Shown here: positions 9,001 to 12,000 of the stretch, piece after piece | Numbering within the stretch: position 1 is the first letter of the stretch | Layout: each line of letters starts with the position of its first letter | Origin: a virus | Lineage: Duplodnaviria > Heunggongvirae > Uroviricota > Caudoviricetes | Reading direction: 5' to 3' (one strand) | Virus record (IMG/VR): IMGVR_UViG_2675903324_000010 | DNA: 12,688 nt | Program-made: the position numbers

Positions 9001-12000
9001 GAAACTTGAGGAGCGCGGTTTATGGCGACGTGCGGCGACCCGATGGTCTGACGTCCTTCTTCACGCAGAAACGGACAGGGAGCGCGAGGAAGCTGCCAGA
9101 CGTCGGGGGATATGTATCATTAAATCCCGTCGTATGCCTGAGCAGTTCGTCACCTTTGGCGATGTGAAAAAGGCCGCAGACAGAAGGCTGAAAGAGATGG
9201 GGATTAATCCGCAGGATGAATGGAAAATTACAGCTTCAGTGATGCAGGCGACGATTTAGCGCTACCGTGATACGTATCTCATCACCGTATTTGCTCAGTT
9301 ATCGCGATTCGCTATAATCACCACCGAAGAGCCGTTGATGGTGTTCGCCTCTGGCAACTGGAGCCAGACTGCATGAAGCCAGTCAGCGGCTTTTCAGCAC
9401 TCATTTTGATGTGTACTTGTCACACACATCGGGATGAGTGAATGACGAAAACATCACGGTGATTTCGTCATGCCGCGATAAGAATGTTCCCCTTTGGGCA
9501 ATTGAAGCCCTCTGTGCAGAAGGTTATCGCGGTCAGGTTGTGATAAAAACGCGCCTCTTTGAGCAATTGAAGCTCACTGTAAAGCGGCTTATCACAGCAG
9601 GCTGTAACGGGCGCTCATCTTCTGGCAACTGAAGCCACCTGTACAGAGACCCGTTACGGCTGACCCTGAATGATTTCGCCCCGTGCAATTGAAGCACCCA
9701 GCGGAGTTATTCAGGGTTTTTTATTGCCCCTCCACCAGCACCACATCTGTAGCATTGATGCGTATACATTCGCCGTCAATTGCACCATTCCGGCCCTCAC
9801 CGTCACGCACCACAACAGAATGACCAGGCAGGCCATAACGCGCCACCTTTCGACGAACACCATCACCAGCGCCCTCACGACGCTCAAACACATTAATCCG
9901 CTCAAGAAGACCATCACGCACCATAGCTTCCAGCGTGCGCCTTGTTGATTCGATCTGATACCGGCTGTTGAATGAATCCATACCATGCAGCAGGTAAGCC
10001 ACACCGGAGACATCAAACGGCGGGTTGCCAATTTCAACGCTGACCCACGCCAGATTGTCGGGAGTGAAGTAACTGAGGGTCTCTTTTTTGTATTGCGTCA
10101 GTCTCATAATGGCCTTTCTTATTGTAGGATGAGTCCCTCATACAATAAGCCATAAGGCAAATTTTGAAAGGACAGAATCGGCGAGGGCAACAGGTGATAC
10201 GTGATGACAAGGTTGAAGCGCTGGAAGCACAAGGGTTATGCGATGGGTTGCGGCAATATGAGGCAAATATGAATATTCAAATTGTTGTGTTGTGAGGTAC
10301 GCAAGATGAAAAAAATTGATTCTTTACGAATAAGTAAAGTAGCTATTATATCAGTATCTTTATTATTTCTTAGCGCGTGTTCTACAAATAATATTGAGAA
10401 TATGCCGAGAGATGCGCGTGTAAAATTTGCTCTAATGAGGGCTTATTCAGATAACAAGTTTGATAATTCAACAGTTATCGGCGAAGTGTTAGGATTGAGT
10501 TGCGCCAGACAACTTGGAAAAACATTAGTAACACCATTGCCAGGGGGAAGCGCTATTGCTACATCCTCTGAGGGCGACATTACTTCTGAGTCGGATGCAA
10601 TACAGGACATGCGATATAAAGCCGCAATGATGGGAGGTGATGCCATAGTGAACGTTGTATGTAAATCAGGTGGTGTTGACTGGATTCATAACTGTTGGTC
10701 AACTGTTAAGTGCGTTGGTGATGTAATAAAAAAATAACAGTTGCCATACTGAAGGTATTGATTAATACATGGAAACTGCAATTACGACGTGTGATTGCAG
10801 CTTACCGTTAGCTACCCCTGTTACAATTGCCCTCTTCCATCACAGCAAAATGCTACCCCCTTCACAGCCCCCTCGGAAGCCCCTCCGATGGGGTGAAAAA
10901 TCCCTGAAAAACTGCGCAAAAAACTGCGCAAATCGATCATAAAACCGATCACAAAATCGATCACACAGACCAGCAGAGAAAAGCCAGGTATGACGCGGCT
11001 TGCAGGGGGAAAGGCCACCGGAAAAAGTGAGCATTTTTCTCAAAAACGAAACGCAACAGGAAGCGCAAAACGAAACCGATACGCGATGATCGAAAAAGCG
11101 CGCAAATTTACCGGATTCGGGTAAGCAATTTTGCCTGATTTGGGCAAAATACGGTGTCGCCGTAACAGTGACATTGACACCAAAACAGTGACACACAGGA
11201 GGGCCGATGACCGAACGTTCACCAACAGAGATAATTCACGGGATTATTGAAGAGCAGGAGGAACGCGAGTTAATCCTCATGATTGAAGAGCAGAGAGAAC
11301 GCCAGCGCAAACAGGAGGCCACGCAGCCGGACAGCGTGAGCGCTGAAAATCAGGCTGATGTGACGTGATGGTGTCGAACTGAGTAACTTTAAGTAACCTT
11401 GTGACCAGTTTTAAACGAGTCGCAAAAAGAGCCGGAGAAAAACCACGAATCTGGGGTTTTTACTGGCGCGGTGTACACGGTGGAACGCATAGCGTTACCT
11501 GACTTATTGCATTGTAAAAAGTTAGAAAGGCACGGCCTGTAAGATGGGATGTTGTGAGTGGTTTAAAGCTACCCGCAAATTCTTTCGTTGTGCTGGCACA
11601 GGCGGTTAAACCGTCGGTAACTGGATAATCCCCATTGGGGGAAAAGCTGGCTACACCCCTCACATCTGAGGACTGATAACGCAAAATTGCGTTGGCTGGC
11701 AGAGTGCAAATTTGCACGATGGCCTAACCCATTGATTCTTTCGAAAACCCCCATTGGGGGAGAACGGGGGAATAAACCTGACTCATTGATTCTTCCACAA
11801 TCCTCAATTTGAGGAAGTCGGCGCGGTAACTCACTGAGATTAAAGCAAAGCTCAAATCTGAGATGGCTACATCCCTCACATCTGAGGACTGTTAACCAGC
11901 AAGCCGGAATATATTCACAAACTACGAAATTTTCGTAGTTTAACTTTCATCCAGTACATCCCCGAAAACACGGGTATGTACGGAGTTACCGTTACCAATA

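Follow-up and report, generated by a model that had tools for sequence, protein, structure and literature searches.

The Rcs envelope-stress pathway controls capsule, motility, biofilm and phage adsorption, as well as LEE (locus of enterocyte effacement) expression via RcsB and GrvA. Three reports connect its activation with phage resistance and mucoidy (PMC7532286, PMC11541549, PMC12557735), and RcsB feeds into LEE control in enterohaemorrhagic Escherichia coli (PMC10877973). A family of lipoproteins resembling RcsF has already been flagged once on a mobile element, in a phage genome paper: phiBZS1_p65 of Serratia phage vB_SspM_BZS1 was called "RcsF-like outer membrane lipoprotein" on bioinformatic grounds (GenBank, PMC7556043). 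Here, we describe a new member of this family, encoded on a stretch of 12,688 nucleotides (IMG/VR record IMGVR_UViG_2675903324_000010; hereafter, the window). By its sequence, the window corresponds to an integrative E. coli island (12-14 kb) of the satellite-like type. The locus under study lies at its right-hand (attR-proximal) end, where the lipoprotein gene is divergent from a gene for a 128-aa protein, named w128.

A preliminary description had presented the two genes as a divergent pair around a shared control region, resembling a cargo or defence module. We find instead that the locus probably consists of two independent units standing side by side, a backbone regulator with its palindrome and a moron-type lipoprotein cargo. 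The features of the locus are as follows (L002 and L019 are sister islands of strain RM10042 and "strain 4", respectively).

9721-10107, minus strand: w128 gene, encoding a predicted 128-aa winged-helix protein; open reading frame (ORF), present as a 387-nt hypothetical coding sequence in RefSeq relatives.
10108-10225: backbone part of the intergenic region, from blastn breakpoints against L002 and L019 with the junctions read directly; a partial PerC coding sequence is annotated in L002.
10118-10149: 32-bp palindrome, putative w128 operator, found by repeat detection.
10164-10295, plus strand: remnant ORF, a PerC-like 5' end fused to cassette sequence, from the ORF list and comparison with intact perC2 (L002, IMG/VR islands).
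10226-10833, plus strand: A+T-rich cargo cassette of 608 bp, from the homology breaks against L002 and L019.
10306-10737, plus strand: lipoprotein gene, 143 aa; ORF, present as a 432-nt coding sequence in RefSeq relatives.

Both ORFs, the palindrome and the spacer of roughly 200 bp (198 bp between the start codons, 10108-10305) are thus present as first described.

w128 and the palindrome upstream of it

The palindrome comprises two 12-nt arms (CTTATTGTAGGA and TCATACAATAAG) that are 92% complementary, with 8 nt between them. Read in the orientation of w128, it has the form CTTATTGTATGA-N8-TCCTACAATAAG; its end is 10 nt short of the ATG, and the right arm extends into the Shine-Dalgarno sequence (AAGGA). 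A search for CTTAWTGT-N14-18-ACAWTAAG gave a single match in the window and a match in 0 of 200 shuffles, and no extra operator copies were found in the window. Since the start region of its own gene is the only visible cis target of w128, the arrangement has the classic layout of autoregulation.

Loci from other genomes were fetched by similarity to the w128 protein, with one genome per species. In all 26 full-length loci, which come from 20 or so genera, CTTATTGTATGA-N8-TCCYACAATAAGGA is positioned ~10 nt upstream of the ATG (the consensus across homologues is also given as CTTATTGTATGA-N8-TCCYACAATAAG). The w128 homologues of these loci are 51-64% identical to the window protein, and the genera include Erwinia, Buttiauxella, Serratia, Yersinia, Proteus and Tatumella, together with one Pseudomonas record. 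Conservation sets in sharply at the left edge of the palindrome (alignment A3), the preceding 60 nt being unrelated between sub-families. The palindrome goes with w128, and its conservation far exceeds that of the gene. It is found once per genome in 427 E. coli genomes, in agreement with the w128 gene, which is carried by 465 of 5426 complete E. coli genomes (~9%). Among 80 matches examined in a search of viral contigs, 42 adjoin a w128 gene; about ten keep the inner sequence of the family without detectable w128, and in the remainder the inner sequence is unrelated and the match looks fortuitous. On this sequence evidence, a self-contained autoregulated regulator with a putative operator is the best reading. 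The earlier view of the 128-aa protein as an autoregulated-looking regulator appears sound, given its modelled winged-helix fold and a palindrome kept upstream of the start codon across genera.

Two departures from the usual layout were observed. In L105 and L132, two IMG/VR contigs of Proteus-type prophages, the palindrome (~1250-1281) comes straight after the integrase gene, with no 128-aa ORF and with tail-fibre genes next; it is an orphan operator or the trace of a deletion. In Klebsiella phage vB_KpnP_ZX1 (L065), the w128 homologue is 41% identical and still has the TRRTLEAMV helix. Before it stand two direct copies of TTATTGAC (4930-4960) in place of an inverted repeat; these may be an operator that has diverged or a chance likeness to a -35-like element.

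The w128 family is narrow: a profile search of 1.84 billion representative proteins recovered only 90 clusters, many of them fragments. Every one of its 372 homologues is named "hypothetical"; they come from Escherichia, Salmonella, Klebsiella, Enterobacter, Serratia, Yersinia, Pectobacterium and others. No match to w128 was found in Pfam, PHROG or NCBIfam (E <= 0.01), or in the PDB by sequence or profile. An AlphaFold model computed from a 25-sequence alignment contains four helices and a beta wing, with a predicted local distance difference test (pLDDT) score of ~75 over residues 1-76. The C-terminal 30 residues, which carry the conserved RYGLPG and AIDGEC motifs, are poorly modelled. Structure comparison of the predicted model identified a winged-helix fold, and the only BFVD structures matched were the Klebsiella phage homologue and generic winged-helix proteins. 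The segment E53-S-T-R-R-T-L-E60, in the predicted fourth helix, is invariant across genera, and by analogy this helix is taken as the putative recognition helix. The model makes w128 a winged-helix protein, whose family has no name and is confined to Enterobacterales mobile elements.

Two candidate identities among known island proteins were rejected. RgdR is said to be present in all E. coli phage-inducible chromosomal islands (PICIs) (PMC6092414) and is a 99-aa protein with an RGD motif at residues 20-22 (PMC3378721); w128 has no RGD and is of different length. The SEN1998/AlpA-type directionality factors, proteins of 60-72 aa (PMC8844411), are not of the w128 family. Finally, w128 is not universal in E. 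coli PICIs: EcCICFT073 has neither a homologue nor an opposite-strand gene at its end.

Besides satellite-like islands, the carriers of w128 comprise a circular satellite that encodes a capsid, a phage-plasmid, prophages of Proteus and a phage of Klebsiella. The circular form, pYD-K10_2 (L149), is a 10.5-kb Klebsiella aerogenes element deposited as a plasmid (NZ_CP142848.1), in which the palindrome precedes the w128 homologue. There, w128 and int are divergent over ~400 bp with repeated CTGCAATACAC motifs, whose sequence suggests arm-type sites of attP. The element (1-10541) has genes for an integrase, AlpA, a DUF927 primase and a fused protease/major-capsid protein, and looks like an excised capsid-forming satellite. 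Palindrome and homologue also occur on a 90-kb E. coli plasmid with portal, lytic-replication protein, Icd-like and Rha-family genes, a content that suggests a phage-plasmid. In Proteus-type lambdoid prophages, the palindrome lies between int and w128, and in IMG/VR islands it precedes the w128 homologues. Klebsiella- and Enterobacter-type islands have w128 as the last gene before the chromosomal flank, on the strand opposite to PerC, SSB and primase, with variable cargo (PRiA4_ORF3, SocA/Panacea and DUF6979 genes) between PerC and the w128 3' end. The gene is not beside an integrase in the phage-plasmid or in the Klebsiella phage, and in other genera it usually has no divergent partner.

An A+T-rich cassette in place of a PerC-family gene

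Pairwise blastn showed that homology to the sister islands stops at 10225 and resumes at 10834. In L002, the slot thus delimited is occupied by 592 bp that include a PerC paralogue; in L019, it has just 96 bp. In the window, the left junction is located ~10 codons into a PerC-type gene, whose remnant reads V-I-R-D-D-K-V-E-A-L-E from GTG 10197. In related islands, the intact gene, perC2, is the divergent partner of w128 and starts 2-65 nt from the palindrome. Because of these two homology breaks, the 198 bp thought to form a single shared control region must be regarded as composite. Positions 10108-10225 are backbone (w128 leader, palindrome and perC2 5' end), kept in sister islands whatever the cargo, and positions 10226-10305 arrived with the cassette.

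The A+T-richness reported for the lipoprotein region is confirmed, with a G+C content of 0.38 over 10150-10600 versus ~0.50 on both sides; values are 0.395 for the cassette, 0.382 for the lipoprotein coding sequence, 0.527 for the w128 coding sequence and 0.494 for the whole window. When positions 9650-10800 were used as a query, the w128 half was found in 116 E. coli genomes and the whole query in 19. Positions 10226-10800 alone were found in the same 19 of 5426 complete E. coli genomes, all 100% identical, and the backbone beside the cassette differs by ~4-7% in these carriers. The invariant cassette occurs in islands with differing flanking genes; carriers of the lipoprotein gene include strains of serotypes O157:H7 and O145:H28. 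Exact breakpoints, low G+C and an invariant cassette in 19 genomes all speak for the recent acquisition first suspected from base composition. From this sequence comparison, the lipoprotein gene is best described as swappable, recently acquired cargo.

Within the cassette, the only promoter candidate, read by eye, is a weak TTGCGG-N18-AATATT, and there is no T-run terminator. The remnant ORF 10164-10295 ends 11 nt ahead of the lipoprotein ATG and is probably a mere leader, through which the ancestral perC2 promoter could read into the lipoprotein gene. Because the cassette replaced the regular divergent partner of w128, the lipoprotein gene may have inherited the perC2 control region; read-through from the old promoter, and hence some control of the lipoprotein by w128, is possible.

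The lipoprotein ORF as called mechanically begins at TTG 10282; ATG 10306, with GAGG upstream and in agreement with the RefSeq coding sequence, is the likely start. The resulting N-terminus, MKKIDSLRISKVAIISVSLLFLSAC, contains the lipobox LSAC with Cys25 (codon 10378-10380) and Ser at +2, and LPAM_1 matches in seven homologues. After export, the protein would receive its lipid at Cys25 and, given Ser at +2, end up in the outer membrane. Its cysteines 66, 119, 130 and 136 are conserved, being invariant across 20 homologue clusters, mostly from Pantoea.

The relatives of the lipoprotein lie in other settings. phiBZS1_p65 shows 57.5% identity over 89% of the protein and is encoded between Q and the holin gene; in a Pantoea-type prophage remnant, the homologue lies between a Q-type antiterminator gene and the holin gene. 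No w128 gene is called or annotated beside the homologues in the phage, the prophage remnant or a Pantoea chromosome, and a plasmid search for the lipoprotein gave no match. Terminator-like hairpins follow the phage and prophage copies, as expected for morons; an upstream hairpin is present in the phage only.

Profile-sequence comparison with RcsF by hhalign gave E = 3e-4, with C66, C119, C130 and C136 aligned to RcsF C74, C109, C118 and C124 and a GEV-G-SC motif common to both proteins. The RcsF sequence used was checked and is identical to 6t1w_C. In structure comparison, RcsF is the closest to the lipoprotein model, ahead of YbjQ proteins; the fold is also common to YbjQ/DUF74 and DUF4156 proteins, and the family has sub-threshold matches to DUF4156, YbjQ_1 and RcsF models. 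The RcsF disulfides are C74-C118 and C109-C124 (non-consecutive). According to the model, the C-terminal domain of the lipoprotein adopts the RcsF fold, with two RcsF disulfides predicted. Compared to RcsF, it has an extra beta-hairpin insertion (residues 68-93), and a conserved NDIEDMPRDARVKFANMEGY segment of the family stands in place of the RcsF linker.

Two units or one module

The following scheme is preferred. Most likely, a w128 dimer would bind the two CTTAWTGT half-sites over its own leader and ribosome-binding region, and so limit its own synthesis. The gene is read from the island end, in the direction opposite to the rest of the island, a position typical of genes that are on during quiescence. 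The lipoprotein gene would have arrived on the 608-bp A+T-rich cassette, replacing most of a PerC-family gene, and w128 may gate its transcription because the cassette sits where perC2 sat. As preferred mechanism, the lipoprotein would interfere with the Rcs envelope-stress and capsule pathway. It could be a surrogate of RcsF towards IgaA, or a competitor of RcsF for BamA or outer-membrane-protein partners. As a result, capsule, motility and, in Shiga-toxin strains, expression of LEE would be altered, or phages would adsorb less.

Several points weigh against this scheme. Confidence in the models is modest (pLDDT 63 for w128 and 60 for the lipoprotein), and the winged-helix fold is generic, being also seen in proteins without a transcription-regulating role. 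A sigma-70 consensus promoter scan found none for w128 or the lipoprotein gene, and a terminator scan gave no convincing candidate for either. Control of the cargo by w128 is conjectural, as the palindrome lies at least 157 bp upstream of the lipoprotein ATG. Against the PRK10781 model, the lipoprotein scored E = 0.053 and 13.6 bits for a cut-off of 140; PF16358 was not matched by the window lipoprotein and was matched by 12 of 20 homologues only at E >= 0.01. The Pro/Lys-rich disordered linker of RcsF threads through outer-membrane proteins. The lipoprotein is devoid of this linker: its residues 26-55 are STNNIENMPRDARVKFALMRAYSDNKFDNS, a segment that is not rich in Pro or Lys and is modelled as helical in part. 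Opposite the IgaA-contact residues A55, L58 and F63 of RcsF, the alignment, weak in this stretch, places M, Y and F of the lipoprotein (the family consensus being M, Y and Y); in RcsF, L58Y and A55K weaken IgaA binding (PMC13317618). Because the curated thresholds are not reached, the linker is absent, a hairpin is inserted and the IgaA-contact positions apparently differ, the lipoprotein is not a bona fide RcsF. The "RcsF-like" label given at the outset is warranted for the fold and the cysteine pattern, as seen in structure comparison, and does not extend to family-model thresholds.

The alternative that the two genes form one cargo or defence module, in which a small regulator controls an envelope-targeted effector and both were acquired and act together, is very unlikely. 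It would account for divergent neighbours with a common 198-bp spacer and palindrome, and for a lipoprotein gene that adjoins the 128-aa gene in 19 of 19 complete E. coli genomes and in 8 of the 8 contexts listed for a close E. coli w128 homologue; regulatory coupling is also possible, given that perC2 was the regular divergent partner. However, w128 occurs without the lipoprotein in ~96% of its E. coli carriers (465 genomes have w128, 19 the lipoprotein) and in all other genera examined, and lipoprotein homologues occur without w128 in phage, prophage remnant and Pantoea chromosome. Moreover, the breakpoint at 10225 lies between the two genes, G+C is 0.53 for w128 versus 0.38 for the lipoprotein, and neither protein matched a PADLOC-DB defence model at E <= 1. 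The ideas of a pair conserved in other elements and of a defence module are thus not borne out; consistent with the first account, neither protein matches a housekeeping family in Pfam, PHROG, NCBIfam or PDB searches. A role of the lipoprotein unrelated to Rcs is a serious, if less probable, rival explanation. It could act in superinfection exclusion or surface masking like T5 Llp, phi80/N15 Cor and TraT, its RcsF/YbjQ-type fold serving as a scaffold that blocks an outer-membrane receptor or the beta-barrel assembly machinery, or it could affect lysis timing, as the authors of PMC7556043 suggested for phiBZS1_p65. This would agree with the location of phage and prophage copies between Q and holin, a moron slot of lambdoid phages, with the missing linker, with the apparently non-conserved IgaA-contact residues and with the fold shared with YbjQ/DUF74 and DUF4156 proteins. 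Still, RcsF itself is the closest structure, ahead of YbjQ, its four cysteines and GEV-G-SC align, and no similarity to Cor, Llp or TraT was found in PHROGs or the PDB.

For the palindrome, an RNA hairpin hiding the ribosome-binding site, or a site for a factor other than w128 (the integrase, AlpA or some host protein), is quite unlikely. Its right arm does overlap the Shine-Dalgarno AAGGA, transcription could start upstream as there is no clear promoter, and in circular or phage forms it lies near int and attP. As an RNA, however, its pairing (84%) and its covariation equal the level of shuffles. Position 5 of the half-site flips between A and T in one arm only, in 9 of 25 sequences, which breaks pair 66-89, and the inner pairs 70-85 and 71-84 are mostly unpaired, so that the changes are not compensatory. 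The hairpin model was rejected for this lack of covariation; one-arm changes without RNA-type covariation fit two protein-recognised DNA half-sites. As to other factors, the palindrome always travels with w128, the integrases range from 22 to 65% identity to that of the window and the distance to att varies, and the fourth helix of w128 is invariant, as is the half-site. That w128 is a recombination or life-cycle factor tied to att and integrase, for accessory directionality or maintenance, is highly doubtful. The gene is terminal, inward-facing and beside the chromosomal flank in many islands, is divergent from int over the ~400 bp with CTGCAATACAC repeats in pYD-K10_2, and is immediately downstream of int in Proteus-type prophages. 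Yet ~2.5 kb (cargo and Q) stand between w128 and the island end in the window's clade, the phage-plasmid and the Klebsiella phage have no adjoining integrase, the islands already have an AlpA-type factor, and the characterised island EcCICFT073 has no w128 gene.

Under the preferred scheme of two independent units, w128 and its operator would be, according to the model, an uncharacterised, conventional-looking autoregulated winged-helix unit. The w128-palindrome association is a compact, very strongly conserved cis/trans pair and offers a means to locate where islands of this family end on the right and where their cargo slots lie. Given the link between RcsB and LEE, it is notable that the slot alternates between a PerC-type regulator and the lipoprotein in Shiga-toxin strains. 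If the lipoprotein acts on Rcs, it would be a mobile-element mimic of a host envelope-stress sensor, and its gene could alter both phage susceptibility and virulence regulation. The significance of the locus would rise if the lipoprotein manipulates Rcs or if w128 gates cargo expression. A more ambitious joint reading is speculative and, in our opinion, unlikely. It would make w128 and its operator a hitherto unnoticed, portable "landing-pad" regulator, common to Enterobacterales satellites, phage-plasmids and prophages, that marks an end hotspot and gates its cargo. In Shiga-toxin E. coli, this cargo would be an RcsF mimic replacing a PerC-type virulence regulator, which hijacks Rcs, switches on capsule against superinfection and retunes LEE and motility.

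The island and its relation to known systems

From the ORF list of the window and from annotated relatives, the gene order of the island is integrase, AlpA, primase, SSB, ProQ/FinO, PerC and Q-type antiterminator. The annotated relatives have the same order and are inserted between yicC and dinD, or beside a tRNA-Gly gene. The features of a PICI are present, namely integrase, AlpA, a primase-replicase with adjacent origin repeats and a length in the range of about 12-15 kb, and there are no lysis or tail genes. The genes of the island outside the locus, from the window ORF list, are given below.

1-1254: integrase.
1798-2001: AlpA-type regulator.
4827-6968: primase.
8076-9259: SSB, ProQ/FinO-family protein and PerC.
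12017-12415: Q-type antiterminator gene; PF06530 is matched in 130-aa homologues.

Directly 3' of the primase gene, an origin-like region (6994-7285) contains two copies of GTTGTCCCA and 3.7 copies of TGGGACAAC, in inverted orientation, around 3.5 copies of a 21-bp unit. The iteron layout of PICI origins in PMC6092414 agrees with these repeats. A search of the window for a lambda-type cosN gave chance-level matches only. The Q-type antiterminator gene (12017-12415) sits on an island without late or lysis genes, and its product could act on the late operon of a helper prophage.

Other repeats are also present. The motif GCAAYTGRAGC occurs five times, starting at 9354, 9498, 9563, 9625 and 9685 (spacing 144, 65, 62 and 60), in the 460-bp non-coding stretch from PerC to the w128 3' end. 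This array is also present in E. coli relatives L001-L010 and L019 and is absent in islands of other genera; it could provide protein-binding repeats for packaging, a second origin or regulation. In the same stretch, a long imperfect hairpin (9663-9723; ACCCTGAAT...ATTCAGGGT), followed by TTTTTTATT, ends on the w128 stop codon and may be the terminator of the plus-strand PerC operon; the terminator scan passed over it because its loop is long. An adjacent pair of 12-bp tandem arrays, AAAAACTGCGCA x2.2 and AAATCGATCACA x3, occupies 10907-10965, 75 bp right of the cassette boundary, in backbone common to the sister islands. Near-duplicate segments (..FHMAVSARPYFVWRF..ARIRQE..) end both ORFs 2066-3808 and 3762-4265. 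This area (2066-4265) is annotated in relatives as Rha-family and long or frameshifted "Icd-like" genes, and looks like a rearranged tandem duplication.

The w128 unit resembles the autoregulated repressors of the MarR, ArsR and BlaI/MecI families in its predicted winged-helix fold, its small size and a palindrome over its own translation start region. By sequence, it belongs to none of these families, and, unlike them, it has an unrelated, poorly modelled C-terminal segment of 30 residues. Its half-sites are 16 bp apart, wider than in MarR-type operators. A further difference is that no second w128 target site was found in the window or in E. coli genomes.

The cassette resembles phage morons and the accessory hotspots of PICIs and P4-like elements in its presence or absence at one exact site of collinear islands and in its atypical G+C, and the slot carries virulence-type PerC-family alternatives, as satellite accessory hotspots do. 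Unlike typical morons, it shows neither a canonical terminator nor a clear promoter of its own, and unlike in typical hotspots it is inserted within a gene and not between genes. Like RcsF (PDB 2Y1B, 2L8Y, 6T1W, 9BIY), its product is a lipobox lipoprotein with the four aligned cysteines, found in Enterobacterales only; unlike RcsF, it is encoded on phages and satellites and not at the chromosomal rcsF locus. The closest described relative is phiBZS1_p65, which belongs to the same family and is likewise accessory cargo on an Enterobacterales mobile element. phiBZS1_p65 resides in a complete temperate phage, whereas the gene of the window resides in a satellite-like island, within a disrupted PerC-family gene and beside w128.

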